This document shows, in pieces, positions 38,342 through 54,929 of a DNA stretch of 54,929 bases (its first letter is position 1; each line of letters starts with the position of its first letter). The notes under the pieces were generated by a model, which made no database searches, was not told where the DNA came from, and worked only from the letters and a program-made list of their open reading frames with translations. The stretch lies in IMG/VR virus record IMGVR_UViG_3300029822_001021, positions 1 to 54,929 of that record, one strand, 5' to 3'. Source of the DNA: a virus. Its lineage: Duplodnaviria > Caudoviricetes. A program made the translations under genes and the position numbers.

Positions 38342-38661
38342 TTCAGCCCCTCCGCATCCGTGAGAAGTGCGGGATAATTCGCCGGGTCAATCTCACTGAG
38401 CCTTGATGCACCGTGCTTCTCCAACAGTGCTCGGACCTCAGCGGTAAAGCCATCATGGCTTTTCGCAGCCAGCACAGCCCGGACTTGCTCAAGCGTGACC
38501 GCTTTGGTTTCAGGTTTTTCTTCCTTTTTGACAGTTGGTGCTTCCGGCTTCAAAGCCCCGCTAGGCTCACCATCCGCCATTGTCTCTGCTACAGCCCAAA
38601 TGCTGTCTGCCAGATTTTTTAGGTTAGCCGCTACATCCAGCAATAGCTTGGTTTTGCTCAT
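38338..38661 (-). CDS. Conserved small phage replication-module protein
   Basis: TLEQVRAVLA...LSEIDP motif; GGAGG RBS. Confidence 0.75.
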   Translation of the reverse strand: MSKTKLLLDVAANLKNLADSIWAVAETMADGEPSGALKPEAPTVKKEEKPETKAVTLEQVRAVLAAKSHDGFTAEVRALLEKHGASRLSEIDPANYPALLTDAEGLK

Positions 38662-38848
38662 GGCTATCACCCCCCTCCTCAATAATTGAAAGCGCTCTCA
38701 CACTGTCGCCTGGGACAATGACCGTCAGCCTTTGCTTGTCACCAAGCAGGAGACGCAGCAGTCTCTCGCGCACGGTGACACGGCGACAGCCAACTATTCC
38801 GCCGCCCTGTGGTTCCTTTGAAACACTAATTCTAAGCGTGTGCTTCAT
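38624..38848 (-). CDS. Conserved small phage protein
   Basis: MKHTLRISVSK...LTVIVPGDSV; AAGGTG RBS. Confidence 0.7.
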   Translation of the reverse strand: MKHTLRISVSKEPQGGGIVGCRRVTVRERLLRLLLGDKQRLTVIVPGDSVRALSIIEEGGDSHEQNQAIAGCSG

Positions 38849-38861
38849 TCGGATCACCTTG

Positions 38862-38927
38862 CCTTTCCGAAGGCTGATTTCTTGTGCCTTCTGCCTTATG
38901 CCACCTGCGGAAGATAAATCGGACGGT
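38862..38927 (-). promoter_or_regulatory. Repeated promoter+hairpin element, copy C
   Basis: ACCGTCCGATT-N14-GGC-N8-GAAGGC-loop-GCCTTCGGAAAGG immediately after the sigma gene stop. Confidence 0.7.
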
Positions 38928-38929
38928 TA

Positions 38930-39313
38930 CTATAACATTTTTTTGAGTTTGTTCTTTGCTCGGTTTACGGCGTGGCGTATAGCGGACTCGTCCACGCCTT
39001 CCAGGGCGGCAAGTTCTGTGTATTTCCAACCTTCCAGACAGGTTTTACGGATAAGGTACTGCTGTCGCTCGGTCAGGTGGGACATAGCGCGGCTAACAGT
39101 TTCTGAAGCTATAAGGTCGGCAAGCAAGTCCGTTCCATCGTCAAAGAACCGCTTGTCCTCATAGGTGAAACTCTCAAGGGAAGTGTGGCGGCGGGTTTCC
39201 CGCCGTTCATTTTTCTTTTCTTCTTCTACGGAACTGAGATAGAAGGTACCGACTTCGTCAGAAACCTCCAATTCGATGATTCTGCCATCGGCATCTTTGT
39301 AATTTATTAACAT
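38930..39313 (-). CDS. Sigma-70 region 4-type phage transcription factor
   Basis: LTERQQYLI...WKYTELAALEGVDESAIRHAVNRAKNKLKK HTH. Confidence 0.85.
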   Translation of the reverse strand: MLINYKDADGRIIELEVSDEVGTFYLSSVEEEKKNERRETRRHTSLESFTYEDKRFFDDGTDLLADLIASETVSRAMSHLTERQQYLIRKTCLEGWKYTELAALEGVDESAIRHAVNRAKNKLKKML

Positions 39314-39319
39314 CTTTTT

Positions 39320-39451
39320 CCTCCTGCGATTTTCAAAAGTTGGCTTGAAAATCCGCAGGGGGCCGATGTCTCAAATCCGTAGAAACAAAACGAGACGGGC
39401 GGCGACACCAGTGGTTGGTGTCATCCTGCCCGTCTCGCGGTTCTGCGGATT
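39320..39451 (-). ncRNA. Structured cis-regulatory leader (attenuator/switch candidate) of the sigma gene
   Basis: Nested stems 39404-10/39416-22, 39391-400/39428-37, 39374-84/39441-51 and an RBS-overlapping stem 39323-36/39345-59. Confidence 0.5.
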
Positions 39452-39475
39452 CTCGTTATTGACTTGTGTTTGCGG

Positions 39476-39625
39476 TTATGCTACTTCTGTATTTATGATT
39501 ACTGCTTTTCCATCTGGTTTAATAAAAATCAGCGTCTTGCAGCCTTTGTAGACAATTTCTACGACGCCAGCTTTCTCATCCAGGCGGCAGACCAGCTTGC
39601 CGCGAGCGTTTCGGATATCTCGCAT
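39476..39625 (-). CDS. 49-aa small protein missed by the ORF track
   Basis: MRDIRNARGKLVCRLDEKAGVVEIVYKGCKTLIFIKPDGKAVIINTEVA; GAAAGGAG RBS. Confidence 0.7.
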   Translation of the reverse strand: MRDIRNARGKLVCRLDEKAGVVEIVYKGCKTLIFIKPDGKAVIINTEVA

Positions 39626-39777
39626 CTCGACGCATCTCCTTTCCATGAAAAGTACGGCTTGTCTGACCGTCTATATTGATTTTATTGGCTCAAGCACGGT
39701 GAGTCCTCAGCTACAGCTCCGCTATCACTCCGCTATTACTCAGCAAATTTTCATTTGTTTTTATCGCAGAAAATTGG

Positions 39778-39850
39778 ACTAAGCATTTGCAAAGATTAAA
39801 TTAACATATTTAAATTTATGTTTTTTATTTGCTTAGTTATTTGCTATAAT
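39778..39850. promoter_or_regulatory. Divergent control region with operator-like inverted repeats and extended -10
   Basis: ACTAAGCA/TGCTTAGT and AACATA/TATGTT inverted repeats; TGCTATAAT at 39842-39850. Confidence 0.55.
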
Positions 39851-39899
39851 TAGGTAACAACTTATTTTAAGAGCGTCCAGAATGCTTGGAGGCGATATA

Positions 39900-40118
39900 A
39901 TGGCATTTAGTTATAACAAGCTTTGGAAACTATTAATTGATAAAAAGATGATGAAAAAAGACTTGATGGCAAAGACGAATCTGACATCAACTACGATAGC
40001 GAAGATGAGTAAGGACTTGCCGGTAAGCATGGACGTATTAGCCAGAATCTGTAAGGCTCTTGATGTGAACATTGGTGATATTGTTGACTATGTCGATGAT
40101 GATGCATCGAATTCTTAG
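39900..40118 (+). CDS. Cro/CI-type HTH repressor (HTH only)
   Basis: SYNKLWKLLIDK...VLARICKALDVNIGDIV; divergent from lytic genes. Confidence 0.88.
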   Translation: MAFSYNKLWKLLIDKKMMKKDLMAKTNLTSTTIAKMSKDLPVSMDVLARICKALDVNIGDIVDYVDDDASNS

Positions 40119-40141
40119 ATTTAATTAAGGGGGCGCAATTT

Positions 40142-41380
40142 ATGAAAAAGCTGTGCTTTGGTTCTTACGCAACGGTTTTAACGCTTTGTAAAGCAAAAAG
40201 CGTTACGCAAAAGCGGTTGTGTGGCACCATCTTGCTTTCTATTGCGCCAAATTATGATATTCGTGAAGATGATGGCACTACTTCAGATTTGGTTCGTGGT
40301 AAGAAAAATCTATCGCCTATCGTGACTGAAAATGCCCCAACAGTGGACTTGCGTACTGTTGCTGATTATTTCAAACATAATATCCTATCTCTCCTGGACA
40401 GCAACAAAAGGAGCCACATCGTTCTTGCGTTGAAGGATATCGTCGCTTCTGATGACACAATCGAGCCTGATACAATTGTGGAAAGAGTTAACGGAATGAC
40501 AAAAGCAACTATTGCAGGACGTAATGCTTTTGTATTAGAAGACTTTCTGGCCGGGCTTTTCCTATATACGGTGGTCAATGTAGAAAACCGCAACTGTCAA
40601 GAAAGCATAAGAGAGATAACCGGTGAGTACATACAGTCCTTTGACACACAAAAAACGAGCATAGACTTTCTTACGGCATACAGCAATTTCTCAATGGGGA
40701 TCGCCGATGAAATAGCGATTAACACTCGCGCTTTGGTTTTACTAACAGAGACAGGCGGCAAATGTCAAAAATGTGGGAGACCATTAGGCATAAAAAAAGA
40801 AGGTAACGACGTTAATTACGCTAAAGTCGTTCACCTTTCTGAAACTGATGATGTTATTCTATGTGTTGACTGTGAACGCGAAATGCAAAATGCCTCAGAA
40901 GACGATAAATTGGCTTTATTATCGGACAAACATTATTTAGAAAATCTTACGGCGGCAAGGAATGCAACGTCACTATATACATTGCAAAATCAAATTGAAG
41001 ATGTGCTTCGTGAAGTAAACTTAATGGATGTTACAGATGATACACGTCTCAAAATAGAACCTGTCAAGGTTGAAAAGAAAGTCACTGAAAAGCGGTTGAA
41101 AGAGCGTGTGCTTTTTGATGTTACGCAGTTGTATGAAGGCGTTAATAATGCGTTAGATCGATTGGCAGGAGAAAACAAGCTAAACGTTGATAAGTTTGCT
41201 AAAAGTATTAAGCGGATGTATGAAGATGCAAGCGAATCGCTTCCCTCCCAAAGTGCCATTTATAATCTGCTCGTTGAAACATTGTTTGAAAAGACTGGCC
41301 GCAAATACAAAGAAGCCTGTGAAATAATAATCTCCTACTTCGTGCAAAGGTGTGAGGTATTCGATGAGATTGCCGAATAA
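40142..41380 (+). CDS. ABC-three-component (Lamassu-like) effector with HNH-like Zn finger and C-terminal CTD
   Basis: CQKC...LCVDC; C-terminal IISYFVQRCEVF typical of ABC-3C CTDs; followed by middle component and ABC ATPase. Confidence 0.72.
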   Translation: MKKLCFGSYATVLTLCKAKSVTQKRLCGTILLSIAPNYDIREDDGTTSDLVRGKKNLSPIVTENAPTVDLRTVADYFKHNILSLLDSNKRSHIVLALKDIVASDDTIEPDTIVERVNGMTKATIAGRNAFVLEDFLAGLFLYTVVNVENRNCQESIREITGEYIQSFDTQKTSIDFLTAYSNFSMGIADEIAINTRALVLLTETGGKCQKCGRPLGIKKEGNDVNYAKVVHLSETDDVILCVDCEREMQNASEDDKLALLSDKHYLENLTAARNATSLYTLQNQIEDVLREVNLMDVTDDTRLKIEPVKVEKKVTEKRLKERVLFDVTQLYEGVNNALDRLAGENKLNVDKFAKSIKRMYEDASESLPSQSAIYNLLVETLFEKTGRKYKEACEIIISYFVQRCEVFDEIAE

Positions 41381-41603
41381 AGTTACATCTTATACAAACA
41401 GCGTTATCGCCCGTTTTCCAGATATCTTAGAAGTATTGACGCAGCGAGATATGTCTCCTAAAGAGCTGTTTGAACTAACCACATCAGGGCAGAAGGATAT
41501 GGGCGATTTTCTAAGTGCTTTAGACTGCTTGTTTGCATTGGGGAAAATTGAATTAATGGATGAAGGGAGGGTACTACGCTATGTTGACAGAAATTCGATG
41601 TGA
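41364..41603 (+). CDS. ABC-three-component middle component (LmuC-like)
   Basis: MRLPNKVTSY...LDCLFALGKI; overlaps both neighbours. Confidence 0.75.
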   Translation: MRLPNKVTSYTNSVIARFPDILEVLTQRDMSPKELFELTTSGQKDMGDFLSALDCLFALGKIELMDEGRVLRYVDRNSM

Positions 41604-43233
41604 TAAATTTGCACCTAAGCATCAAAACATCCAATTTAATTATGGACTTAATACGGTTTTAGGTAGTTCTGGCGGCAGTAATGCCATTGGCAAATCAACA
41701 TTTCTGTGGATTATCGACTATGCGTTCGGCGGTGAAGGCTACTACACCCTTTCTGGTGACATTAAAAAAGAGATCGGCCCTCATACCATTTATTTCACTT
41801 TTCAATTTGAAGGACAGCCACATTACTTTTACCGGAGAACCGATGAACCTAAAAATGTATATCGCTGTGATAAAGAAGGCCATTTCATTACAAAGTTGTC
41901 GCTTGATGAATTTCGGAGCTTTCTCTTTCAGGAATACAAGGTTGGACTTCCAGCCCTTACATTTTCGGAGATTACAGAGCGGTATTTTCGTATTTATGGC
42001 CGGGAAAATACACTGGAGAAGTACCCCCTGCTCGTAAAGCCTCGTGAACAGGATGAAAAAGCAGTTGATTTTCTGATGAAACTATTTGGTCACTACAATA
42101 TTCTTTCTGCCATTAAGAACATGGAGGAAGAACTTGGTGTCAAATACTCGCAGCTTAAATCGCGTAAGCGTCAGCAGGTTGACACCGCAAAAATTGAAAT
42201 GAATCAGAAGACTATAGAGTCACTGAAGAAAAGGCTCCAGAAGCTAATGAAAAACAGTGAAGAGGCCCAGTTAGCGCTGTTTGGGTTTGATACACAGACA
42301 TTTGAACGGATAAAAGCGGCTCAAAAAGAGTTGAACAAATTCATCCGCAAACGCAATCGTCTGCAATCTCAGCTTAATGCAATTTCGAGTAACATCGCTG
42401 ACACTAATCCTGAAACCGCCAGTGAATTTGATTCCCTGGTGCATTTTTTCCCAAATACTGATATAAAAGCCTTCGAGGAAATTGAGCACTTTCATAAGAG
42501 AATAAGGGAAATTCTGGGCGAAGAAATGGCTCAGGAAATAGCACGTTTGCAACCGCTCATTGATCATTGCGATAAAGAAATCAAACGTTTACATCAAAAG
42601 ATAGAGGAATCCGGCTTGGCAAAAGAGATGTCGGAACGAGTGCTCTCCCAATGTGTCAACGTGTCAAAAAGCATTGATAGACTAGAAGAGGAAACAGCCG
42701 AGTTGATTCACCAGAAAGAATTGCAGGAAATCCGCGCCGAAGCAGAGCACAAGCTAGAAAGACTAATGCTTCAACAAACCGAGAAGCTGGAAGAAATACA
42801 GGACAACATCAACCTACGTATGGCAACGATAAATGGTGTAGTGACTGAACACCAAGAAATAGCACCCATTCTGCAGATTACTCCCCAAAAGGAAATTACC
42901 TTTGAGACTCCTGGAAACACCAGTGAGGGTACTGCGTTTAAGAGCCTGGTGGTTTACGATTTAAGTGTGCTTGAGTTACGACCAATCCCTGTACTCATTC
43001 ATGATTCTAATATTCTCAAACGCATTGAGGACATACACCTAGAACACATATTGGAACTTTATCAGGCCAGTGGACGACAGATCTTTATTGCGTTTGACAA
43101 GGCTGATTCTACAACCACAAAGGCACACAAGATTTTAGAAGCTACAACGATTTTGCGGTTGTCGGATGGAAATGAGCTTTTTGGTCGTTCGTGGAGTAAG
43201 CACGAAACGAATGATATTAATGGGGGGATCTAA
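41581..43233 (+). CDS. SMC/Rad50-like ABC ATPase (DUF2326; LmuB-like)
   Basis: GSNAIGKST Walker A, long coiled coil, SEGTA signature, LIHDS Walker B, QIFIA. Confidence 0.82.
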   Translation: MLTEIRCDKFAPKHQNIQFNYGLNTVLGSSGGSNAIGKSTFLWIIDYAFGGEGYYTLSGDIKKEIGPHTIYFTFQFEGQPHYFYRRTDEPKNVYRCDKEGHFITKLSLDEFRSFLFQEYKVGLPALTFSEITERYFRIYGRENTLEKYPLLVKPREQDEKAVDFLMKLFGHYNILSAIKNMEEELGVKYSQLKSRKRQQVDTAKIEMNQKTIESLKKRLQKLMKNSEEAQLALFGFDTQTFERIKAAQKELNKFIRKRNRLQSQLNAISSNIADTNPETASEFDSLVHFFPNTDIKAFEEIEHFHKRIREILGEEMAQEIARLQPLIDHCDKEIKRLHQKIEESGLAKEMSERVLSQCVNVSKSIDRLEEETAELIHQKELQEIRAEAEHKLERLMLQQTEKLEEIQDNINLRMATINGVVTEHQEIAPILQITPQKEITFETPGNTSEGTAFKSLVVYDLSVLELRPIPVLIHDSNILKRIEDIHLEHILELYQASGRQIFIAFDKADSTTTKAHKILEATTILRLSDGNELFGRSWSKHETNDINGGI

Positions 43234-43236
43234 AAT

Positions 43237-45687
43237 ATGGCTGCAATAAACGATTTAATAAGGCAAATACCTGATACGTCTTTACGTATTCGTTTGGAAC
43301 AGGAAGTTGCTCGCCTATCTAAGAATAAAAAATTTGGACTAGTTTTCGAGGAACACATCCCTGAATGTACTCCGCTTTATGATGTTGCTATCAAACTTGG
43401 CTCGACAGTTGCACGAAAAACGGGACACATCAATGATTTCTATACAGTGGTGAAATTAAATGGCGATACTGCCCTTTGCCGTAAAAAGATAACAGGCGAT
43501 GCTGTGGCAATCCCACTTACGGAACTCGTTTCGGTTGCCCAATTTGGCGAGCCGATATTTCCTATGCTCCAACCGATTGAATCTGTAGAGAATGCGCCTG
43601 GTAGTAATCTATGGCACACACTCATTGAAGCAGACAACTACCACGCTCTCCAATTGCTGGAATACCTATACCCCAAACAGGTAGATTGCATCTACATCGA
43701 CCCGCCATACAACACAGGGGCAAAAGATTGGAAATACAACAATGACTATGTGGATTCCTCTGATAGCTGGCGTCATAGCAAGTGGCTGTCAATGATGCAG
43801 AAGCGGCTGAGGATTGCGAAGAGGATTTTGAACCCAGACACAGGTGTTCTCATCGTCACCATTGACGAACACGAAGTGCATCACCTTCGAATTCTGTTAG
43901 AACAACTTTTTCCAGAGTTTTATATCCAAATGGTAACAGTTGTGATAAACCCTAAAGGGGTTACTCAGGGACGCTTTTCGCGGGTAGAGGAATATATAGT
44001 GTATTGCTTTGCTCCTAACGCATTTGTTGCTGACAACGATGATAATTTGCTAAACCCACCTATCCCCAACAGAAAACCACGTTGGAAGGGTTTGCTACGT
44101 TCAGGAACAGATGCAAATAGAAGCGACCGGGAAAGTATGTTTTATCCTGTGCTGGTTGATAGTGAGCGACAAGCTGTTGTAAAGGCGGGTAATTACTTAC
44201 CTTTATCGCAATCACCGGTTCTTGGTGAAAAGATTGAAGGCTATGAAGTCGCGTGGCCTATTAGAAAAGATGGTTCATTTGGAAGATGGAGTGTTGGTAG
44301 CGACACGTTAAACAACCTGATTTCCAAAGGATACGTAGCTTGTGGAAAATATGATTCACAACGTAGAACTTGGGGAATTTCGTACATAAGTCAACCAAAT
44401 CAACAACAAATTGAGCGTGGCGGTATCCGAATTGTCGGTCGTGACCCGATTACTAATGTTGTTACCATTGAATATGCTAGGGATGATACTCGTGTAATTA
44501 AAACGGTATGGCACCGCTCTTATCATGACGCTGGGGCTTATGGTTCTGACATGGTTTCAAGTATTGTAGGTCAGTCAAGAGCATTTTCTTTCCCGAAATC
44601 ACTTTATTCTACTAAAGATGCAATTATGGCAGTTGTTCGAAATAATAAAAAAGCCCTTATCGTTGATTTCTTTGCCGGAAGTGGTACAACTCTCCATGCC
44701 GTGAATCTGTTGAACGTTGAGGATAACGGCCAAAGACGGTGCATATTGGTCACAAATAATGAGGTTTCAGTTGACGAGGCACGGGATTTGCAAAGAAACG
44801 GCTACCAACCAGGTGACCTCGAATGGGAAAAACATGGAATTTGCCGCGCGGTAACTTGGCCGAGGACAAAATATAGCATTCTTGGCAAACGTGACGATGG
44901 CACAGTTCTAACAGGAGAGTACTTTACGAACCAGACCGTAACAAAGGAAGTTGATCGTTCATTCTATCAGCTCGGCTTTGTAGAGAACCCCACAGAACTA
45001 ACAACCAGCGCTAAAAAGCAGCTTGTTTCCTTGCTTCGTGGCAAGGATGGAAAGGCACAACTGCCGCAAACGTTGGTAAAAGCGGGCAGTAAATTTATTG
45101 TTTCGGATAAACATTCAGCGTCGGTTTTATTTGATATAAACGCTGTTGATGAATGGCTTGAAGCGTTGGAAGATCAAGACCACATCACCGACTTTTACAT
45201 ATTGGTCAAAGAGCCCGCGAAATTCAAAGCTATTAAAGCACTGGTTACTGATTTGCTTGGTCCCATTAGCGAGACAACGCAAGTGAAACGCCCCATGAGT
45301 GATGGCTTCCCTGCCAATGTCGAATATTTTAAACTTGGTTTTTTGGATAAAAACAGCGTGTCGTTGGGACAGCAGTTTCATGAAATACTACCACTGCTGT
45401 GGCTGAAATCTGGTGCACTTGGTAAGCGACCTGAACTAAGCAGCGATGAAGAACCAAAAATGTTAATTCTTCCACAGAACGGCTTTGCTGTTCTGGTTGA
45501 TGAAACAAAGTTTGCTGAGTTTGCCGAAAAGCTCTCGGAAGAAGATAGAATCAAGGTGGTCTATTTCGTAACAAACTCCGAGGACGCATTCCGTGAAATG
45601 ACCGCTGGCATAAAAGTAAATAAAACATACCAGCTATACCGCGATTACATCGACAACTTTGTGTTGGGGAGCAGGAGGGATTCATAA
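43237..45687 (+). CDS. Type III-like restriction-modification methyltransferase (Mod)
   Basis: KKFGLVFE, YIDPPYNTG, FPKS, DFFAGSGTT in beta-class order. Confidence 0.88.
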   Translation: MAAINDLIRQIPDTSLRIRLEQEVARLSKNKKFGLVFEEHIPECTPLYDVAIKLGSTVARKTGHINDFYTVVKLNGDTALCRKKITGDAVAIPLTELVSVAQFGEPIFPMLQPIESVENAPGSNLWHTLIEADNYHALQLLEYLYPKQVDCIYIDPPYNTGAKDWKYNNDYVDSSDSWRHSKWLSMMQKRLRIAKRILNPDTGVLIVTIDEHEVHHLRILLEQLFPEFYIQMVTVVINPKGVTQGRFSRVEEYIVYCFAPNAFVADNDDNLLNPPIPNRKPRWKGLLRSGTDANRSDRESMFYPVLVDSERQAVVKAGNYLPLSQSPVLGEKIEGYEVAWPIRKDGSFGRWSVGSDTLNNLISKGYVACGKYDSQRRTWGISYISQPNQQQIERGGIRIVGRDPITNVVTIEYARDDTRVIKTVWHRSYHDAGAYGSDMVSSIVGQSRAFSFPKSLYSTKDAIMAVVRNNKKALIVDFFAGSGTTLHAVNLLNVEDNGQRRCILVTNNEVSVDEARDLQRNGYQPGDLEWEKHGICRAVTWPRTKYSILGKRDDGTVLTGEYFTNQTVTKEVDRSFYQLGFVENPTELTTSAKKQLVSLLRGKDGKAQLPQTLVKAGSKFIVSDKHSASVLFDINAVDEWLEALEDQDHITDFYILVKEPAKFKAIKALVTDLLGPISETTQVKRPMSDGFPANVEYFKLGFLDKNSVSLGQQFHEILPLLWLKSGALGKRPELSSDEEPKMLILPQNGFAVLVDETKFAEFAEKLSEEDRIKVVYFVTNSEDAFREMTAGIKVNKTYQLYRDYIDNFVLGSRRDS

Positions 45688-48195
45688 ATGAGAGATACAT
45701 TATTTCCGTTTCAGGAAACAGCTCTTGCTGAATTGCATGAAAAGATCAATAAAGCACACTTGATGTGGAGCGAACGTGACCCACAAGTAATTTCCTTTTC
45801 CGCACCTACAGGTTCGGGAAAAACAATCATCATGACCACACTCTTTGAAGAAATTCTATTTGGGAGTGCAGATAACATTGGCGAGCCGAAGTCAGTGTTT
45901 GTTTGGCTTTCCGATTCACCGGAACTTAATGAGCAAACGCGGCTAAAAATTGAAAGCAAGTCTGATAAAATCCGTGTGCGGGATTTAGTTACTATTGATG
46001 CAACCTTTAGCGCCGAGTATCTTGAAGGTGGCCGCATCTATTTTCTGAACACACAAAAACTAGGTTCTGACAAACTATTGACGGCAAAATCCGATACACG
46101 GCAATATTCAATTTGGGAAACACTTACTAACACTACTAAACGTAATCCAAAGCAGTTTTATGTGGTGATTGATGAAGCGCATAGAGGCACCTATACCTCC
46201 GTTCAAGCGGAGAACAAAGCGCAGTCCATCATGCAGAAATTCATTAAAGGCAGCAAGGATGACGGGCTCTGTATTATGCCTCTTGTCATCGGTGTAACTG
46301 CAACCCCTCAGAGATTTGATAATTTAATTGCTGGAACTACATCGACAGTTCAGAAAGTCATCGTTCCTCCTGAGCATGTGCGTGATTCCGGACTTTTAAA
46401 GGACAGAATCATCATTCATTTCCCGGATATTCAACTAAGTGCCGAAATGACCATGTTCAAGGGTGCAGTAGAAAATTGGCTTAAAAAGTGCTCTCACTGG
46501 AAAGCTTACTGTGAACGCGAAAACGAGAAAATGGTAAATCCTATTCTCGTTGTTCAAGTCGAAGATGGCAACGAACGCGAAGTAACCCATACTGATATTG
46601 GGGCTTGTATTGATTTACTTGAGGAATCACTGGGGCGCAAATTACTGCCTGGTGAAGTGGTACATACCTTTAATGACCGTGGCACGATTAAAGTACGTGA
46701 CGTCGAAATTCAGCAAATCGAGGCCTCTCGAATTGAAGACGAAGAAAATGTGAAGGTAGTATTCTTCAAAATGAACCTTTCCACAGGCTGGGACTGTCCA
46801 CGTGCTGAAACGATGATGTCGTTCCGCAGTGCACAAGACTATACTTTTATTGCGCAGCTTTTAGGTCGTATGATTCGCACTCCTTTAGCGAGAAGAATTG
46901 CCTCCGATGCTGAACTTAATAGCGTGAGCCTTTTTCTTCCGTACTTTGACGAAGAAACAGTGAAAAATGTGGTTAATGCTCTACGCGATAGTGAGTCGGC
47001 TATGCCCGCCGAAACAGGTACTAACAAAGAACTTGTTACACTTGGTCGCAATCTTGCCTATGCCGATGTGTTTGATGCAATGGATAACCTCGTCACTTAC
47101 CGGGTAGATTCATCTCGCAAACAGGCACCTCTTAAGTTACTAATACAGCTTTCCCGAGCACTGACGATGGACGGCATTGATTTAGGAGCGCAGAAAACAG
47201 TTAAACATGCAGTTCTATCAAAAATGGATGAGGAAATTGCGCGGATAAAAGAAAGCGGAGAATTTAACAGCCGAGCTGCTGCGATCACCGGATTTGCTCT
47301 GGGTACACTCATATTTGAGTACGGAGACAATGCCTATTCCTTTGACGAAGCAACACAGACCATGACAGTATCGGATTTCGATATTTCACGACATTTTGAA
47401 CAGGCCGGAAAGCTGTTGGGCGAAGGCCTGCACAAAGAATATTGGATTCGGCACAGTAGCCGTGACCATATCGATATAAAAAAGGAGATCATCGTTCTTA
47501 CAAACGACACGGACGCAATGGAACGAATAGAAGCCTTTGCAGAGGAAAAATTCATTAATCTCTACGAAGACAATAAGCGCTCCATTGCAAAATTAAACGA
47601 GGCACGAAAAAATTTTTATGAAAGGTTAATAAATTCTTCTGTACAACCGATAGCTGTGCCATGGGTATTACCCGATTCAATCGATTTCTCTGTGCCAGAT
47701 GATAGCATTAAGTTTGAACAGCACCTATATTGTTCCGAGGACGATACATTCCAAACATCACTAAACCAATGGGAGAGCGGAGTTATTAAAGAAGAACTTA
47801 AAAACGGTGCCGTCTGCTGGTTACGTAATCTCGACCGTAAAAAGTGGTCACTTGAAATACCGTATGAAGTTAGCGGTATTACCACTTCTATGTTCCCGGA
47901 TTTAGTGGTTGTTAGAGCAGATGCACAGGGTTACGTTTTCGATATTCTGGAACCACATGACCCCAGTCGTAAGGATAATTACCCCAAGGCTGTAGGCTTG
48001 GCGAAATTTGCCGAGAAACACTGGGATAAATTTGGCAGAATTCAGCTCATTCGTCTAAAAAAAGGTGTAGATGGTCACGAACATTTCTATCGATTGGATA
48101 TGGGAAAAACAACAGTCAGAAATAAGGTTCGCGGTATTACGTCAAACGAGGAGCTTGATAGAATTTTCGACGCAGATGCTATACGTGAAGACTAG
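45688..48195 (+). CDS. Type III-like restriction subunit (Res helicase-nuclease)
   Basis: APTGSGKT, IDEAH, TATP, GWDCP, QLLGRMIR; C-terminal FPDL...LEPH nuclease-like motif. Confidence 0.85.
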   Translation: MRDTLFPFQETALAELHEKINKAHLMWSERDPQVISFSAPTGSGKTIIMTTLFEEILFGSADNIGEPKSVFVWLSDSPELNEQTRLKIESKSDKIRVRDLVTIDATFSAEYLEGGRIYFLNTQKLGSDKLLTAKSDTRQYSIWETLTNTTKRNPKQFYVVIDEAHRGTYTSVQAENKAQSIMQKFIKGSKDDGLCIMPLVIGVTATPQRFDNLIAGTTSTVQKVIVPPEHVRDSGLLKDRIIIHFPDIQLSAEMTMFKGAVENWLKKCSHWKAYCERENEKMVNPILVVQVEDGNEREVTHTDIGACIDLLEESLGRKLLPGEVVHTFNDRGTIKVRDVEIQQIEASRIEDEENVKVVFFKMNLSTGWDCPRAETMMSFRSAQDYTFIAQLLGRMIRTPLARRIASDAELNSVSLFLPYFDEETVKNVVNALRDSESAMPAETGTNKELVTLGRNLAYADVFDAMDNLVTYRVDSSRKQAPLKLLIQLSRALTMDGIDLGAQKTVKHAVLSKMDEEIARIKESGEFNSRAAAITGFALGTLIFEYGDNAYSFDEATQTMTVSDFDISRHFEQAGKLLGEGLHKEYWIRHSSRDHIDIKKEIIVLTNDTDAMERIEAFAEEKFINLYEDNKRSIAKLNEARKNFYERLINSSVQPIAVPWVLPDSIDFSVPDDSIKFEQHLYCSEDDTFQTSLNQWESGVIKEELKNGAVCWLRNLDRKKWSLEIPYEVSGITTSMFPDLVVVRADAQGYVFDILEPHDPSRKDNYPKAVGLAKFAEKHWDKFGRIQLIRLKKGVDGHEHFYRLDMGKTTVRNKVRGITSNEELDRIFDADAIRED

Positions 48196-48348
48196 ATCTC
48201 TAGTATGGCGGTCAGAGCATCTGGAAATGTAAAGGCAGGAAAATATCTATTTACGGACGGCAAAGCTTTCGGCTTTCGATATCTTCGCTTCATTGAGATA
48301 ACCGGGTTTTTCTGTACATTTAGCCATGATTAGGAGGCTATTAAAGAG

Positions 48349-51300
48349 ATGCAAACGCTGAAATTTGACGAGTTTTTGCGATCGCTAAAACAGAATAAGT
48401 ATATGCCGCATTCATTGCTATTGGGTGCAGGTGCTTCTGTGGAGTCGGGAATCCCCTGTGCATCGAATTGTGTGTGGGATTGGAAACACGAGATTTTTTT
48501 GTCCAAAAACCCGGGACTGATCGAAGTTTACAGAAATATTAAAGTGGATAATGTTCGCCTAGCTATCCAAAAATGGCTAGATAGCGAGAAAGTTTACCCT
48601 GTGCTGAACTCAGATGATGAATATTCCTTTTATGCAGAAAAAACATTCCCAATTGCCGATGACCGTAGGAAGTATTTTCAACATCTGGTTTCTGGGAAGA
48701 ATCCGAGTTTGGGTTATCACATCATTTCTATGCTGGCTGAAACAGGGATGATTAAGAGCGTTTGGACGACCAATTTTGATGGACTTATGCTGAAATGTGC
48801 CCATCAGTACGACGTCAATCCTATTGAAATTACATCAGAGACTGCTGACCGTATTTATCGGGGTGATGTACAAGGTGAGTTACTTTGCATCGCTTTACAC
48901 GGCGACTATAAGTATGGGGATTTGAAGAATACGTCTGAAGAATTAGACTCTCAAGACGATATTTTTATTAGTGCATTAAGCCATGAACTGGCGAATCGAG
49001 ACTTGATTGTGTTGGGATACAGCGGTCGAGACAAATCGCTAATGTCTGCACTCAATAAAGCATATTTAACTAAAGGGGCAGGTAAACTGTTTTGGTGTGG
49101 GTATGGCATAAATACGTCTGAGACAGTCAGCAATCTAATCCAGGCAGTAAATGACTCAGGTCATGCCGCTTATTACGTTCCAACTGATGGCTTCGATAAA
49201 ACTGTATATAGTCTGGCTCGCCATTGCATGAGTGAAGATAAAGCTTTCCTTCAGAAGATTGAGACCGTAAAGAAGAAATTAGGCGCAAAAACCAACGTGG
49301 TGACAAGCCGGTTTGACGCACTAAATCGTACGGTTAATAAAATTACCGACACAAACGTCTATCCTGTTGCATTTCCCAAGAATTGCTTCCAGTTTGAAGT
49401 TGAGTACGCCAAGGAAGAGTCTCCGTGGGCGTTTTGTAAAACGCTCTATGACAACAGCATTATGGCGGTACCCCTGAAAGGATTTATATATGCTTGGGGT
49501 GAAAAATCCCAAATACAAGTCATCTGCGCAGGCAAGCTAAAAAGTGAAATCTCGGTAACACCATTCACCCGAGATGCTCTTATACATAAAAGTGAGTTCA
49601 AAGAACTTCTATTAAAGACAGTCACGGCTTTGTTGGGACAGATTAATTCGCTCGAATATTCCAAAGACAAAATTTGGGATAGTTCTCAGCGTATATCAAA
49701 AAATATCGGTAGCAGAACTATTACTGCCTACAAAGGAATTCGCCTTGCTTTGATCTTCGATAATAAATACACATACATTACTGTAAGTCCAGCGTTTGCG
49801 TACGATAATGATATTATTTTGTCCCGCGATGAAAGAAAGCAGTTCGCTGATGCTTTCAGCCTTGACATAAATTCTGATAAGCCCAATTACAACATCCACA
49901 GCTACGTAGAAACATGGATTCGAAAACTACTTGGCAGAAATGGCATCCGATGTTCCTATCCTCAGAATACTTATACCGGATTCGATTTTATAGTCCGTCA
50001 TAATAGTGCTATTTTAGGGGTAAATTATGGAAGTAGCAGACCTATCCAACTACCACAAACAATCAATAGTAACAGAGTAATCTTCAATGGTGTAGAATGC
50101 CGCGACCCGGAATTGGAATTCTACAATCCGCATCAAAAACGTATGGTAACCGACTTCCATCCGATGCGTGGGTTGTTAAACAACACACCTTTTGATTATT
50201 CCCTAAACGAAAAAGTGCTAAGATCCTCAATATCATTGGGCGTGATATGTCCTGATAGCCACAAAAAACGGTTGCACGATTTTCTTAATCAGTTTAATTG
50301 TAGACAGAGTGTTAAATACAATGTTGATTTTGTCATTCCATTCCCTGGCTTTTATCAAGCTTTCAAAACGCAACTAGATATTCCATCGCCTGAATCCAAT
50401 GAATGGACAAACCTTCAACCCCCCAAGATTACAGACGTCCAAAGAGCATCTGTGGAATTAGGTAACTTAATCACTCGAAGACTTGACCAGTTAAGTGCCT
50501 CGGCGATTGATGTGGCGTTAATCTACATCCCCAAAGATTATGATTTTCTTACTGGATATGCAGAAAACAATGAAAAATATGATTTGCATGATTTTGTTAA
50601 AGCATATGCGGCTCAAAAAAATATAGCAACGCAATTTGTGAGGGAAAAGACTATTGAAAGCGAAATGTACTGTCAAATCATGTGGGCACTTTCCTTAGCG
50701 ATATATGTTAAGTCCAGTCGAATTCCGTGGGTTATTTCTGGACTCCAATATGATACTGCTTTTGCTGGCATCGGATACAGCGTAAACCATACACCAAAAG
50801 GAGCAAATATCATAGTTGGTTGCAGCCACATCTATTCATCCGATGGTCAGGGGATGAAGTATAAACTCTCCAAAATTGATGAGGTTACCTTTGACCGTAA
50901 GAAGAATCCATTCCTTTCCGAGGATGAAGCATACCGCCTTGGGCTGAATATAAAGGAACTGTTTTACAAATCCTTCACCGAGTTGCCCAAAAGGGTGGTT
51001 GTCCATAAAAGGACACCATTTAGAAAAGAGGAGGTTAAGGGGCTTGTTGAGAGCCTAGCAAGCGCAGGTGTTCGAGACATTGAGTTGTTGGAAATAACGT
51101 ATGAGGATGATATCAAGTGCTTCGAGTTCAATAAGAATGTGACCGGTATCGACGGTTTCCCAGTGCGACGCGGATTATGCTTCCCGCTTAACGAAAACAC
51201 CATGTACCTATATACTCACGGGATCGCTCCATCTGTTCGCGACCCAAACCGAAAGTATATACAGGGCGGCAAGACGATTCCGCTTCCGCTAAAAATCGTG

Positions 51301-51492
51301 AAGCATTATGGCAACGGCACAATGGCGCAGATTGCGACAGAAATATTGGGACTATCAAAGATGAACTGGAATAGCTTTGGCTTATATTCCAAGCTGCCCT
51401 GCACCATTGAGTCTTCAAATGAAATCGCGAGGATTGGTTGGCTACTATCGCAATATGAGGGCGCAATCTACGATTACCGTTATTTTATGTGA
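48349..51492 (+). CDS. Single-chain Sir2-APAZ-short Argonaute (SPARSA-type anti-invader NADase)
   Basis: Sir2: LLGAGAS, TTNFD, LHGD, LGYSG; MID: HDFVK, TQF, YVK; PIWI with lost tetrad: AGIGYS, VVHKRTP, LSKMNWNS, LPCTI. Confidence 0.88.
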   Translation: MQTLKFDEFLRSLKQNKYMPHSLLLGAGASVESGIPCASNCVWDWKHEIFLSKNPGLIEVYRNIKVDNVRLAIQKWLDSEKVYPVLNSDDEYSFYAEKTFPIADDRRKYFQHLVSGKNPSLGYHIISMLAETGMIKSVWTTNFDGLMLKCAHQYDVNPIEITSETADRIYRGDVQGELLCIALHGDYKYGDLKNTSEELDSQDDIFISALSHELANRDLIVLGYSGRDKSLMSALNKAYLTKGAGKLFWCGYGINTSETVSNLIQAVNDSGHAAYYVPTDGFDKTVYSLARHCMSEDKAFLQKIETVKKKLGAKTNVVTSRFDALNRTVNKITDTNVYPVAFPKNCFQFEVEYAKEESPWAFCKTLYDNSIMAVPLKGFIYAWGEKSQIQVICAGKLKSEISVTPFTRDALIHKSEFKELLLKTVTALLGQINSLEYSKDKIWDSSQRISKNIGSRTITAYKGIRLALIFDNKYTYITVSPAFAYDNDIILSRDERKQFADAFSLDINSDKPNYNIHSYVETWIRKLLGRNGIRCSYPQNTYTGFDFIVRHNSAILGVNYGSSRPIQLPQTINSNRVIFNGVECRDPELEFYNPHQKRMVTDFHPMRGLLNNTPFDYSLNEKVLRSSISLGVICPDSHKKRLHDFLNQFNCRQSVKYNVDFVIPFPGFYQAFKTQLDIPSPESNEWTNLQPPKITDVQRASVELGNLITRRLDQLSASAIDVALIYIPKDYDFLTGYAENNEKYDLHDFVKAYAAQKNIATQFVREKTIESEMYCQIMWALSLAIYVKSSRIPWVISGLQYDTAFAGIGYSVNHTPKGANIIVGCSHIYSSDGQGMKYKLSKIDEVTFDRKKNPFLSEDEAYRLGLNIKELFYKSFTELPKRVVVHKRTPFRKEEVKGLVESLASAGVRDIELLEITYEDDIKCFEFNKNVTGIDGFPVRRGLCFPLNENTMYLYTHGIAPSVRDPNRKYIQGGKTIPLPLKIVKHYGNGTMAQIATEILGLSKMNWNSFGLYSKLPCTIESSNEIARIGWLLSQYEGAIYDYRYFM

Positions 51493-51879: not shown

Positions 51880-52231
51880 TGGTGGAGGCGGGGGGAGTCG
51901 AACCCCCGTCCGCAAGAAAGACCAGCTGAGTATCTCCGAGCACAGTCCGTGTTTTGAGCTTCGCCATCCGGGCGCCCGCGGACAGGCTCCTTTCAAGCTA
52001 TCCCCGATTGTTTTCCCCATAAAGCCCCTCGAGAAAGAAGGCTTCAGGGTACCCTAACTAAGTGACGCCCTGCACCAGGCCGTTAGGAAACCTGGCCGGA
52101 CGAGCCGCTTAAGCGGCTAGTGCAAAATTATCTTCTGCAGTTAATTTAAGTTTTCACCTTTTTAACGAGCTGGCGACAACTCGGCTCGCTGCTCAACCCA
52201 TCTTATCCCCCGTCGAAACCAGTACGCCCCC
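51880..52231 (-). ncRNA. ssrA: tmRNA; tag reading frame AEDNFALAA
   Basis: GGGGGCG/CGCCTCC-ACCA acceptor stem with G3-U, GTTCGA T-loop, tag frame 52138-52109; adjacent to smpB. Confidence 0.96.
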
Positions 52232-52361: not shown

Positions 52362-52835
52362 CTAAGCACGGTTCCTCTCTTTTAGGCTGCGTTCCATATC
52401 GCGCCGGGCATCGCGGCTGGCTATATCCTCGCGCTTGTCATAGAGTTTTTTCCCTACTGCTACCGCCAGATCCATTTTAGCCCGGCCTTCTTTGAAGTAA
52501 ATCTTCAAGGGAATCAGGGTCAGGCCTTTTTCCCTCTGTAAAGCATGCAGGCGGTTTATTTCCCGCCGGTGCAAAAGGAGCTTTTTGGGCCGCAGAGGAT
52601 CATGGTTGAACTGGTTGCCTTTGTCATAGGGACTGATGTGGAAATTGTTGACCCAGATCTCTCCATCTTTGACCACAGCATAGGCATCACGCAGGTTGGC
52701 CTTGCCCATGCGCAGTGATTTGACCTCGGTCCCCACCAGTACCAGACCGGCTTCCAGGTTTTCTTTGATATGATATTCGTAGCGGGCGCGGCGGTTATCT
52801 ACCACCGACTTAATCCCTTTGCCCTTCTTGCCCAT
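52362..52835 (-). CDS. smpB: SsrA-binding protein
   Basis: NRRARYEY, EAGLVLVGTEVKSLR, KLLLHRREI, GKKLYDKR. Confidence 0.97.
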   Translation of the reverse strand: MGKKGKGIKSVVDNRRARYEYHIKENLEAGLVLVGTEVKSLRMGKANLRDAYAVVKDGEIWVNNFHISPYDKGNQFNHDPLRPKKLLLHRREINRLHALQREKGLTLIPLKIYFKEGRAKMDLAVAVGKKLYDKREDIASRDARRDMERSLKERNRA

Positions 52836-53103: not shown

Positions 53104-54929
53104 TTACTCATCCTGGAGCAATTCAAAATCGATCTTGCCTTCATCCACATCCACTCTAACCAGTTGCACCCGAACGCTATCGCCGATAGCAAATTTTCTC
53201 CCGCTATGCCGGCCACGCAGGGTGTAAGTACGATCGCTGAACAAATAGTAATCATCAGCTATGCTGGAGATATGCACCAGGCCCTCAACCGTGTTTTCCA
53301 GGGCTACGAAAAAACCAAAGGCTTGCACGGAAGAGATGCGAGCTGAGAATTCATCACCAACAAACTGGGACATATACTGGGCCTTTTTCACATCCAGGAG
53401 CTCTCTTTCCGCCTCCTCGGCTTTCATCTCCTGCAGGCTGGATTGTTCTCCGTAAATTGTCATCTTCTTTTCCAGGCTGCTCTTCTTACGGGCAGTCATA
53501 CCCCCATCCAAAAGGCTGCTGAGCACCCGGTGAACTATAAGGTCGGGATAACGCCGGATAGGACTGGTAAAATGGCAGTAGTAGGGGGAAGCCAGACCAA
53601 AATGACCCCGGGGCTCAGGCAGATAGGAAGCATGTTTCATGGAGCGTAAAATCATCAAGGAAATCATTTGCTCCTCCGGCCGGCCCTTAATGTCGGCCAG
53701 TATCTCTTGAAAAAGCATGGGGCTGACTTTATGTCCTTTTATCTTATGCCCAAATACCGCCAACACCTTGTTTAACTCGCCAATAGCTTCTTCATCCGGT
53801 TTTTCATGGACCCGATACAAGGCGGGAAGTCCCAGATTATGCAGGTGTTCCGCTACCACTTCATTGGCTTTTATCATAAAATCTTCTATCAGCATTTCAC
53901 CCGGACCGCGCTCGGCTCTTTTGACTTCTAGGGGAAAACCCTCTTCGTCAACTATTACCTTGCTTTCGGGGAAATCAAAATCCAGCATCCCCCGATTTAA
54001 GCGGGAACGGCGCAGGATATCAGATAGTTCTTTCATCAGGAAGAAATCCTCTACCAGTTCCCCGTATCGCTCCTTTAAGGGCGGGGGATTATCGGCCAGA
54101 ATACGGTTTACATCACGGTAAGTCATCCGTTCATTTATCTGGATTACCGACTTTACGATCTCGTAATCCACTACCTGTCCCCAGGAATCAATATCCATTA
54201 TACAGCTTATAGCCAAGCGCTCGACCTGAGGATTGAGGCTGCAGATATTATTGGATAATTCCACCGGCAGCATGGGCAGAACTTTATCTATCAGGTAAAC
54301 ACTGGTGCCGCGCTTAAAGGCTTCCCGGTCCAACTTGCAGTCTTCTTTAACATAATGGGAGACATCAGCAATATGCACCCCTAGCTTGTAGCCTTTCGAA
54401 GTTTTTTCAATGGAAACAGCATCATCCAGGTCTTTGGCATCTTCACCGTCAATGGTTACCATGCGCCAGTCCCGCAAGTCCCGGCGCCGGGATATCTCTT
54501 CCGCCGCGACCGCCACAGCCACGGACCGGGCTTCTTCAAGCACATTATCAGGAAATTCCAGGCGCAGGCCATGTTTTTTGGCCAAAACTTTAAGATCAAC
54601 ACCCGCCTCTCCCTTGCGTCCCAACACTTCCACGATTTTACCCTCGGCCACCTTGTCCCGTTCAGGCCAGGAGCTGATCCTGACCAATACCTTGTCTCCT
54701 TCTTTGGCTTTCCATTTACGCGAGGCTTTAACATAGATAGGGTAAATCTGCCGGGAATCATCCGGAACCACCTGCAGCAGGTGCCGGCCTTTGGTAAAGG
54801 TCCCTACCAGTTCCCGGGTGTTGCGGGCCAGGATTCTGATAACCGTGCCCTCCGGCCGCTGGCCGTTATATCCCTTTTCCTGTATCCTTACCATCACCCG
54901 GTCATTATGCATAGCCCCGTTGAGTTTCT
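53104..54929 (-). CDS. rnr: Ribonuclease R (5' end outside window)
   Basis: TIDGEDAKDLDDA, HFTSPIRRYPDL, C-terminal S1 domain; rnr-smpB-ssrA synteny. Confidence 0.95.
   Translation of the reverse strand, partial: KLNGAMHNDRVMVRIQEKGYNGQRPEGTVIRILARNTRELVGTFTKGRHLLQVVPDDSRQIYPIYVKASRKWKAKEGDKVLVRISSWPERDKVAEGKIVEVLGRKGEAGVDLKVLAKKHGLRLEFPDNVLEEARSVAVAVAAEEISRRRDLRDWRMVTIDGEDAKDLDDAVSIEKTSKGYKLGVHIADVSHYVKEDCKLDREAFKRGTSVYLIDKVLPMLPVELSNNICSLNPQVERLAISCIMDIDSWGQVVDYEIVKSVIQINERMTYRDVNRILADNPPPLKERYGELVEDFFLMKELSDILRRSRLNRGMLDFDFPESKVIVDEEGFPLEVKRAERGPGEMLIEDFMIKANEVVAEHLHNLGLPALYRVHEKPDEEAIGELNKVLAVFGHKIKGHKVSPMLFQEILADIKGRPEEQMISLMILRSMKHASYLPEPRGHFGLASPYYCHFTSPIRRYPDLIVHRVLSSLLDGGMTARKKSSLEKKMTIYGEQSSLQEMKAEEAERELLDVKKAQYMSQFVGDEFSARISSVQAFGFFVALENTVEGLVHISSIADDYYLFSDRTYTLRGRHSGRKFAIGDSVRVQLVRVDVDEGKIDFELLQDE

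Follow-up and report, generated by a model that had tools for sequence, protein, structure and literature searches.

The virus record IMGVR_UViG_3300029822_001021 (Duplodnaviria; Caudoviricetes) is a complete record of 54,929 bases; we refer to this stretch as the window. Every gene from position 39646 down to 97 lies on the minus strand, and between the first two genes of this leftward operon is a leader RNA that is the subject of this report. The second gene encodes a sigma-like protein, and replication and structural genes come after it on the same strand. The leader thus lies at the entrance of an apparent lytic operon. The leader and the open reading frames (ORFs) on either side of it are the following.

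39476 to 39625, minus strand: small upstream ORF, whose ATG at 39625, a start that is kept in relatives, gives 49 aa plus stop
39314 to 39475, minus strand: leader RNA, 162 nt between the small ORF and the sigma-like gene
38930 to 39313, minus strand: sigma-like gene, 127 aa, ATG at 39313-39311, second gene of the leftward operon

Within the leader, the elements named below center on the Shine-Dalgarno (SD) sequence of the sigma-like gene and on its complements.

39440 to 39454, minus strand: A, the anti-anti-SD arm, with the core AAUCCGCAG (AATCCGCAG) at 39451-39443 and either A' or A'' as its partner
39390 to 39438, minus strand: T, a 49-nt hairpin with near-perfect pairing, its lower stem formed by GCGAGACGGGC and GCCCGUCUCGU
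39383 to 39390, minus strand: U-tract, UUUUGUUU (TTTTGTTT), directly 3' of T, which makes T terminator-like
39373 to 39386, minus strand: A', the decoy, with the core CUACGGAUU (CTACGGATT) at 39382-39374
39344 to 39362, minus strand: A'', which is the anti-SD arm and makes up the 5' side of hairpin 2, with the core CUGCGGAUU (CTGCGGATT) at 39358-39350
39320 to 39337, minus strand: B, the 3' arm of hairpin 2, which contains the SD sequence AGGAGG at 39325-39320

The elements had been named in a first-pass annotation of this DNA, and each of them was found in its place on the minus strand. The 49-aa ORF that it had noticed just upstream is also there, ending with a stop codon at 39478-39476, 24 nt ahead of A. 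This ORF is the first gene of the leftward operon, and an alternative start at 39646 would lengthen it to 56 aa. It is kept as a protein in the relatives whose leaders are of the window's type (alignment A7), and an AF2 model of its product has five strands and a pLDDT of 95.3. The product has no Pfam, PHROG or NCBIfam family match and no fold match at E<=0.001 in PDB or BFVD, and an atlas search gave hypothetical proteins only, all under 0.9.

The sigma-like protein matches sigma-70 region 4 (PF08281, E 3e-9, residues 72-123) and phrog_11138 (E 3e-22), and it has 402 homologous clusters, some of which are named 'sigma factor-like helix-turn-helix DNA-binding protein'. It scores under the cut-off of every NCBIfam sigma model (best TIGR02937, 40.1 vs 42.9 bits), and its PDB matches align to SigA region 4 only, at E 0.011 or weaker. 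We therefore rejected the possibility of a full sigma-70 family sigma factor, which has region 2, for core binding and -10 recognition, plus region 4, because region 4 alone was matched.

The leader RNA has a strong predicted fold. The minimum free energy (MFE) of the RNA from 39480 to 39300 (181 nt) is -75.5 kcal/mol, compared with -40.6 +/- 4.0 for dinucleotide shuffles, a z of -8.76 with 0/200 shuffles as good. In this closed fold, which we call fold 1, A pairs with A' to make one long hairpin that encloses T and the U-tract, and a second hairpin then buries the ribosome binding site (RBS). The long nested hairpin of terminator-like appearance that had been noticed at first is thus real. 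Within T, CGAGACGGGC at 39437-39428 pairs with GCCCGTCTCG (GCCCGUCUCG) at 39400-39391; T alone (39438-39390) is worth -37.0 kcal/mol and is followed by UUUGUUUC. An intrinsic terminator is a stable G+C-rich hairpin followed by a U-rich tract on the transcribed strand, and T is such a structure, although a simple terminator scanner missed it due to bulges in the stem. The A:A' pairing has a central C.A mismatch in the window and lengthens the T stem, while the core pairing of A with A'' is perfect. The RBS hairpin is present as well, but it covers the whole of AGGAGG rather than the part that had been supposed: hairpin 2 (39362-39320) buries the entire motif with one C.A mismatch. An additional helix, 39370-39365 with 39314-39309, covers the AUG. 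The mean unpaired probability of the SD is 0.17, and exact copies of the 9-mers are found nowhere else in the window than in the leader elements.

No Rfam family had been recognized from the sequence, and the searches agree: at E<=10 over 38500-40500, Rfam gave only chance miRNA and snoRNA matches, and a gathering-score scan of the whole window gave tmRNA only. A blastn search of a phage database with the leader returned one chance 44-nt match, to a Salmonella phage. An aptamer or riboswitch was considered and rejected, given the lack of an Rfam match and a T that is an almost continuous helix with a variable and covarying upper stem. The leader does have the parts of a riboswitch-type expression platform, which are an SD, an anti-SD and an anti-anti-SD. 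A leader peptide was also rejected. The 33-aa ORF that runs from GTG 39408 and ends over the ATG is not conserved, as its start codon occurs only in the window's subgroup and is lacking in L011, L045 and L072 (relatives are given by L numbers), and a stop cuts it in L012. CsrA-type GGA motifs, noticed by eye, were set aside, since GGA often arises by chance and is located mostly in stems.

The first-pass annotation had proposed a two-state attenuator. Two partners for A do exist, but A:A'' encloses T and leaves it intact, and we found no RNA antiterminator: unpairing either arm of T costs 28.0 or 30.0 kcal/mol with no substitute helix. Transcription attenuation by a terminator and an antiterminator is therefore rejected, as no pairing is mutually exclusive with the terminator stem. 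Because T stays intact and unchallenged, any switch can act on ribosome access and not on termination.

Related loci were collected by protein-guided searches of viral, genome and metagenome collections. From 73 loci and the window, up to 230 nt upstream of the start was taken, and these sequences collapsed to 53 non-redundant leaders. Contig repeats (L024-L033, L037, L044, L047), a weak partial match (L023) and loci with scant or absent upstream DNA (L055, L058, L070, L071, L080, L087) were dropped, and whole-leader statistics were taken on 49 leaders after exclusion of three that were too short (L007, L038, L075) and one with a misplaced start (L069). The window's type, type I, comprises 24 leaders in about a dozen sub-lineages, to which L104 and L120 were added later. 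At one related locus, L014 of Pelotomaculum terephthalicicum JT, the protein is identical to that of the window and the leader differs by two substitutions. A covariance model was built from 23 type I leaders, and the 24 leaders re-aligned with it make up alignment A5, in favor of which an alignment of 65 matches that included reverse-strand and weak ones (A4) was discarded. The covariance model, R1, gives the window leader 159.7 bits, and 23 relatives are recovered with it at E<=1.5e-15.

Leaders of types II to VI are unrelated in sequence to type I, yet they stand ahead of homologous genes. Across all types, 47 of the 49 leaders have a hairpin (-12.5 to -38.8 kcal/mol, 30-110 nt ahead of the start) that is followed directly by a U-rich octamer; the exceptions are L079 and L086. 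The unpaired probability of the SD is 0.25 or less in 46/49 leaders (median 0.04), compared with 5/23 other SD-bearing genes of the window (median 0.43). These counts make a terminator-like hairpin followed by a buried RBS a property of the leader of this gene family, whatever its sequence.

The A of type II leaders has the sequence GGAGCC, which is that of the true SD, and is found immediately 5' to the terminator hairpin. The complement of the anti-SD sits in the 5' arm or top of the terminator in types III-V. Type VI has an A and a mismatched A' that enclose another hairpin, with the terminator coming after. In the very divergent member L126, whose protein identity is 33%, A:A'' is a different pair that is perfect over 12 bp. 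The element that is repeated in types II, III and VI is the SD or its complement. A separate observation concerns the type I leader L021 (Oscillospiraceae), in which an inserted stretch of about 50 nt (approximately L021:1395-1450) separates A' from A''. The insertion consists of AT-rich UUAAG(G)AUUU repeats with a hairpin of their own, which the covariance model mistook for hairpin 2.

Both pairings of A covary. On A5, 86.0% of the 1157 cells of fold 1 are paired, compared with 76.9 +/- 0.6 when partners are shuffled (0/500 reach the real value) and 36-50% when partners are slid. Changes on both sides are seen in 25/49 pairs against 15.2 +/- 2.1 in shuffled alignments; the terminator stems (helices 2 and 3) contribute 11/21 pairs and hairpin 2 (helix 4) contributes 9/16. 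On the plain MAFFT alignment A3, which was fitted to no structure, the RNAalifold consensus is A:A'', and the pair types at one of its positions are AU 14, CG 4, GU 2 and GC 2. A is the best upstream duplex partner of the anti-SD arm in 23/24 type I leaders, the lone exception being L045, where the arm was defined too short.

Because A5 misaligns A' and the hairpin 2 of L021, A:A' and A:A'' were recounted by anchors, in a fixed register on the CCGC and GCGG cores and on the 18 distinct leaders among the 24. For A:A'', 205/252 cells are paired (81%; slid 29-50%; permuted 183.4 +/- 3.7, 0/1000 reach). For A:A', 187/252 cells are paired (74%; slid 28-53%; permuted 170.6 +/- 3.5, 0/1000). All four core positions of A:A'' are standard pairs in 18/18 distinct leaders, and A:A' has at one core position a C.A in 9, a C.U in 1 and a C-G in 8. 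A'' also tracks A independently of A': in L021, CCG has become CCA with GCGG becoming GUGG; in L084, AAU has become AAC with GGAU becoming GGGC; and L012 and L061 have matched one-base insertions. The A:A'' duplexes are worth -15 to -24 kcal/mol. In a comparison of 14 leaders, which leaves out a fifteenth, the mis-anchored L012, A:A'' exceeds A:A' in strength by more than 1 kcal/mol in 10 leaders; the two are within 0.2 of each other in 3, and A:A' is the stronger in 1. The two pairings that the first-pass annotation had drawn for A, imperfect with A' and perfect with A'', are thus both conserved with compensatory changes on homologous leaders, and the aligned sequences indicate that the difference between them is a recurrent trait and no accident of the window.

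The type of mismatch that is tolerated bears on whether selection acts on the RNA at all. The repeats could instead matter as DNA, for instance as operator half-sites for a Cro/CI-type helix-turn-helix (HTH) protein or for the sigma-like protein itself, or the long hairpin could be chiefly an RNase III site. Four copies of AATC(C)GCAG lie here in direct and inverted orientation, with the exact 9-mers confined to this part of the window, and hairpin 2 is a long DNA palindrome. T plus A:A' makes a duplex of more than 30 bp, as in RNase III substrates, and phage early RNAs are processed by RNase III. But G.U cells far exceed A.C cells in T (51 vs 7) and in P1, the A:A' helix (29 vs 9), as expected of RNA made from one strand, and this excess points to selection on the minus-strand RNA and not on a DNA palindrome. 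The helices stay paired while their sequence changes, A and A' are 60 nt apart, and the repeats of types II, III and VI consist of the SD or its complement. RNase III cleavage is possible, but it would leave the A:A'' complementarity unexplained. We consider a role at the DNA level or as mainly a processing site very unlikely.

What the two pairings would do in a transcript depends on energetics. Fold 1 is the MFE in all type I leaders. When A:A'' is forced (fold 2), the full-length window RNA is worse by 10.4 kcal/mol, and the full-length RNAs of 12 type I representatives are worse by 3.0-16.6 kcal/mol; since fold 1 is favored at full length, fold 2 would never be populated at equilibrium. 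In growing transcripts, A:A'' becomes the optimum once all of A'' has been made and stays so up to the emergence of the 3' arm of hairpin 2. This interval spans 20 transcript lengths in the window RNA and 9-30 in 9/12 type I representatives. Blocking the SD and all downstream sequence, which a bound ribosome would do, turns the MFE to A:A'' in 8/15 leaders. A closed equilibrium combined with a transient open structure is what marks delayed folding of the MS2 type, and the leader shows both in silico only. At equilibrium, prediction favors the closed fold (by 3-17 kcal/mol), and A:A'' is the optimum only transiently in the growing transcript.

The anti-SD arm was also assessed in leaders of other types. 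The real duplex of the arm with its upstream partner was compared with those in 200 dinucleotide shuffles of the upstream 150-170 nt, and a leader passed if 5/200 or fewer were as good. Type I passed in 8/12 representatives, type II in 6/6 and type VI in 4/4 (all 0/200). Of the leaders added later, L120 passed (0/200); the 0/200 of L105 is uninformative, as the 3' arm of T itself was taken as the anti-SD arm. The strongest argument that the upstream complement of the anti-SD is functional is its upkeep in these independent sequences.

Several points weigh against a working switch. The full-length energies given above all favor the closed fold. The transient interval spans 0-3 lengths in three of the 12 type I representatives (L045, L061, L084). 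It is confined to 3-4 of the 6 leaders of type II and to 1-2 of the 5 of type III. The anti-SD-arm test failed in 4/12 type I and in 3/5 type III leaders, so that only 2/5 of the latter passed; types IV and V passed in 0/2 (8 and 12 of 200) and types VII-IX in 0/3, and L104 and L106 failed as well (57 and 60 of 200). A5 was fitted to fold 1, and in it A' is off by one column in 5 rows and the hairpin 2 of L021 is misplaced. Because the leaders are related to one another, fewer independent events lie behind the counts than the number of cells suggests. Hairpin 2 has more A.C than G.U cells (26 vs 13), most of them one conserved C.A. Finally, A' and A'' are alike, and part of the A:A'' complementarity could stem from duplication.

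An alternative is that there is no switch, and that the leader is an ordinary inter-cistronic terminator followed by a constitutively weak, structured RBS. The complementarity of A and A'' would then be a by-product of having similar copies in A' and A'', or of a reused helix motif. Such an explanation agrees with the dominance of fold 1 in all type I leaders (by 3-17 kcal/mol), with a T that is never challenged, with the recurrence of the motif GCGGAU / AUCCGC inside T in many relatives (seen by eye), and with types VII-IX, which have no significant partner for the anti-SD arm. It does not account for an A'' that changes with A where A' does not (L021, L012, L061, L084), nor for a core that is complementary to A'' in 18/18 distinct leaders and mismatched with A' in 10/18. 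Types II and VI, which are unrelated in sequence, would also have had to reinvent an upstream complement of the anti-SD arm. We regard this explanation as unlikely.

Taken together, the data are best described by a cis-acting RNA, in which a terminator is combined with a delayed-folding or triggerable RBS gate ahead of a gene for a sigma-region-4 protein. We give this reading a probability of about one half. The elements, their conservation and the covariation of both pairings can be read from the aligned sequences; that T terminates transcription, that the transient fold forms in the cell and that the fold sets the yield of translation are what we infer from them. The most likely use of the arrangement is kinetic, and a factor acting in trans may stabilize the open state.

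The model has two gates. First, T and its U-tract would stop part of the early transcripts just past the small first ORF. Second, A'' would bury the SD and the flanking helix would bury the AUG, so that transcripts that read through are translationally closed at equilibrium. A would act as an anti-anti-SD, as its pairing with A'' frees the SD; otherwise A would be kept by A', a weaker decoy that is stacked on the base of T. During transcription A' would capture A first, and A'', the better complement, would displace A' once it has emerged. The SD would then emerge unpaired, giving ribosomes a brief opportunity to load. Finally, B would displace A from A'', A would go back to A', and the mRNA would be locked shut. 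The yield of the regulator would in this way track how fast new transcripts are made, and those that are old or stray would be inert.

The small gene upstream of the leader brings in a different possibility, in which a small phage protein binds the leader at T, at A' or at the junction and moves it into the open fold. The 49-aa beta protein would be the candidate in the window, and a Cys4 zinc ribbon at loci with other leader types. A small ORF lies ahead of the leader in the loci examined, and the strongly closed equilibrium fold makes a helper plausible. The loci of types II and V encode a Cys4 zinc ribbon that hhalign relates to Mu Com (probability 91.9%, E 6.9e-7, 36 columns); Pfam Zn_ribbon_Com is the top match for L009 (E 4.9e-4) and matches 5/7 members, although these matches are below the gathering score (19.9 vs 22.9 bits) and many generic zinc-ribbon models score alike. 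The loci of types III and IV encode other CxxC...CxxC ribbons. The window product, by contrast, has no zinc ligands, is unrelated to Com or the ribbons (hhalign 0.1-0.3%), and has neither a fold match at E<=0.001 nor an atlas lead. Its status as a relative of Com was considered and rejected, since MAFFT puts it in register with Mu Com but hhalign gives only 0.3%. L086 has both a ribbon and a type I-like ORF, which means that these are different genes; type VI has yet another small ORF, and small ORFs are common in phage early regions anyway. A protein that flips the switch is therefore an improbable explanation for the window.

We also observed that at seven type II and III loci (L009, L020, L036, L040, L041, L042, L057) a same-strand ORF of 180-241 aa lies upstream of the small ORFs. 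It has an HExxH motif (seen by eye) that is reminiscent of ImmA/IrrE-type metallopeptidases. It is followed by the Cys4 zinc-ribbon ORF and, in type II, also by a lysine-rich ORF of 48-67 aa.

Metatranscriptome contigs from 4 runs, which as assembled contigs are blind to transcript ends and levels, cover the leader and both flanking genes piecewise. Two runs, both from one study, have contigs that cover the small ORF and end at 39471, short of A; their word depth exceeds that of the leader contigs. In the same two runs, adapter letters abut 39470 and 39444, and there is a 1-nt insertion variant at 39468. The break near 39471 may be an RNA end or an assembly break, and the 1-nt length polymorphism at 39468 can explain it.

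In a further alternative, the terminated transcript is itself the regulator. Abundant short RNAs that end at T would pair their A with the A'' of the rare read-through mRNAs and open the SD in trans, which would put a threshold on promoter activity. An RNA terminated at T has A and lacks A', leaving A single-stranded like the seed of a small RNA (sRNA): in 12 type I leaders, the predicted unpaired probability of A is 0.24-0.76 in RNAs that end at the U-tract and 0.00-0.25 in read-through RNAs. A layout of seed, terminator hairpin and U tail resembles sRNAs derived from 3' untranslated regions (UTRs), and the logic resembles that of DsrA and RprA on rpoS. The strength of the A:A'' duplexes suits this idea, and it fits types I and II. 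It fails to generalize, because the terminated RNAs of types III-VI hide A: types III-V hold A inside T, and type VI has both A and A' before T. The small-ORF contigs that end before A, from two runs of one study, would also count against it, but the polymorphism can explain the break and the contigs do not decide the matter. We think activation by the terminated RNA quite unlikely.

The remainder of the leftward operon, and the genes that diverge from it, give the context of the leader.

Minus strand, after the sigma-like gene: two PHROG families of unknown function, then a DUF2800 exonuclease
Minus strand, further along the operon: Enc34-type single-stranded DNA-binding protein, DNA polymerase A, VapE-like protein, SNF2 helicase
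Minus strand, end of the operon: large terminase, then larger ORFs
39882-40118, diverging from the leftward operon: Cro/CI-type HTH gene
40142-41380, plus strand: ABC-3C CTD11, first of a defense-type block (40142-51492) downstream of the Cro/CI-type HTH gene
41560-43233, plus strand: DUF2326, defense-type block
43237-45687, plus strand: N6_N4 DNA methylase, defense-type block
45688-48195, plus strand: ResIII/SNF2 helicase, defense-type block
48349-51492, plus strand: SIR2-like protein, defense-type block

A part in the lysis-lysogeny decision had been suggested for the leader. Gene context is the sole basis for this link: the operon diverges from a Cro/CI-type HTH gene, and replication and structural genes come after the leader.

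Other features of the window were noticed along the way. In the 5' UTR of the small ORF, just ahead of its SD, a small terminator-like hairpin (39670-39654, minus strand) reads ACGGUCAGACAAGCCGU followed by ACUUUUCAUG; L002-L005 have the same sequence, and L013 differs by one loop base. Two direct copies of ATAGCGGAG, at 39736-39728 and 39725-39717 (minus strand, 11 nt apart, found by eye), sit in the intergenic region between the HTH gene and the leftward operon and may be operator repeats. A promoter scan of 38800-40200 gave 0 sites and is uninformative here. CGCCTTCCAGGGCGGCAA is an exact 18-nt direct repeat with one copy in the sigma-like gene (38995-39012) and the other in a 492-aa ORF 27 kb away (11641-11658). 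At the right end of the window, on the minus strand, are a tmRNA (51880-52231; Rfam 181.5 bits), a 157-aa ORF (52362-52835) and an adjoining RNase R-type gene with RNB, CSD2 and S1 domains (53104-54912). The tmRNA and RNase R stretch resembles a host flank, and the prophage is thus probably located beside the tmRNA gene; no clear att repeat was found within the window.

Should the proposed gate work, a temperate phage whose hosts are strictly anaerobic Bacillota would silence its lytic operon at the level of RNA, on top of control by a repressor. The terminator and the self-closing RBS would make stray transcripts harmless. The leader would also be a natural case of protein-free control by co-transcriptional folding in a DNA phage; to our knowledge, such control has so far been documented mainly for RNA phages and type I toxin mRNAs. 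The design, made of an anti-anti-SD, a decoy, an anti-SD and an SD, would be compact and portable. Because its layout recurs in unrelated sequences, the leader is a good candidate for a new RNA family. The proteins encoded by the small upstream ORFs, Com-like zinc ribbons among them, would be candidate translational activators outside Mu-like phages.

It is tempting to go further. The leaders could belong to a class of prophage RNA that is widespread in anaerobic Bacillota, has yet to be described and acts as a self-timed commitment checkpoint, in which only RNA that is nascent, or that is met by a small protein such as a Com-like zinc ribbon, is translated, with at least four sequence-unrelated versions of one design. 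We hold this broader idea only tentatively and think it rather doubtful as it stands. If it is true, transcripts that leak past the terminator in a lysogen would close permanently, and unrelated versions would have converged on, or kept, the combination of anti-anti-SD, decoy, anti-SD and SD with a terminator.

Each kind of part in this leader is known, whether the intrinsic terminator, the sequestration of an SD or the anti-anti-SD. What appear to be undescribed are their combination with a built-in decoy, the conservation of that combination before a sigma-region-4 gene in prophages of anaerobic Bacillota, and its recurrence in unrelated sequences. We found no description of the leader in the main texts of the literature consulted, which does not prove that there is none.

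The E. coli thiM thiamine pyrophosphate riboswitch has the same three-element logic, with an upstream segment that is either part of a closing helix or paired with the anti-SD. In thiM, the upstream segment is locked in helix P1 or pairs with the anti-SD and frees the SD, and the counterpart of thiM P1 here is A:A'. Unlike thiM, the leader has no aptamer or Rfam match. What A:A' closes is a near-perfect hairpin, free to vary in its upper stem and terminator-like in its own right. The term 'anti-anti-SD' is borrowed from the thiM literature, as it appears in excerpts of one paper (PMC2018614).

Early control of lambdoid phages offers another likeness. Lambdoid early operons have the terminators tL1 and tR1, alternative structures in the cIII mRNA and an RNase III site in the N leader. 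As in those checkpoints, a terminator lies early in the operon toward the lytic genes, and an RNA structure would set the translation of an early regulator. Unlike them, the window has no identified N, Q or nut-like element and no homology to these systems, and its hosts are anaerobic Bacillota and not enterobacteria.

Type I toxin mRNAs use comparable rearrangements. In hok/sok, similar metastable pairings form among the SD, the anti-SD and their complements. In aapA1 of Helicobacter pylori, successive exclusive pairings keep translation off during and after transcription, according to excerpts of the source (PMC6733600). The direction is different: type I toxin mRNAs block translation of the nascent RNA and are activated after 3' processing, whereas the nascent state is predicted to be open here. 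No antisense RNA or toxin is involved in the present case.

The com-mom operon of phage Mu is a further likeness. Next to the translation inhibition structure of mom is a hairpin that Com binds, which exposes the start signals, as excerpts of the source describe (PMC6483171). As in Mu, a small gene lies just upstream, and the gene that follows has its start signals buried in a hairpin; a Com-like Cys4 ribbon is encoded at loci whose leaders are of types II and V. Unlike in Mu, the upstream protein of the window has no zinc ligands and is not detectably related to Com. The target is a sigma-like HTH protein in place of a DNA modification enzyme, and the leader adds a terminator and an RNA anti-anti-SD.

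Finally, the maturation gene of the RNA phage MS2 provides the closest documented parallel. Its equilibrium structure buries the SD through an upstream complement, and translation is thought to be possible only on nascent RNA, with a transient structure delaying closure (PMC4615214, in excerpt). A transient A:A'' optimum of this kind is predicted in 9/12 of the leaders described here. The leader differs from MS2 in belonging to the mRNA of a DNA prophage and not to an RNA genome, and in being known from sequence and prediction. It also differs in how closure would be delayed: the holder A binds the anti-SD itself, with no separate trap hairpin, and a dedicated decoy, A', and a terminator are built in.

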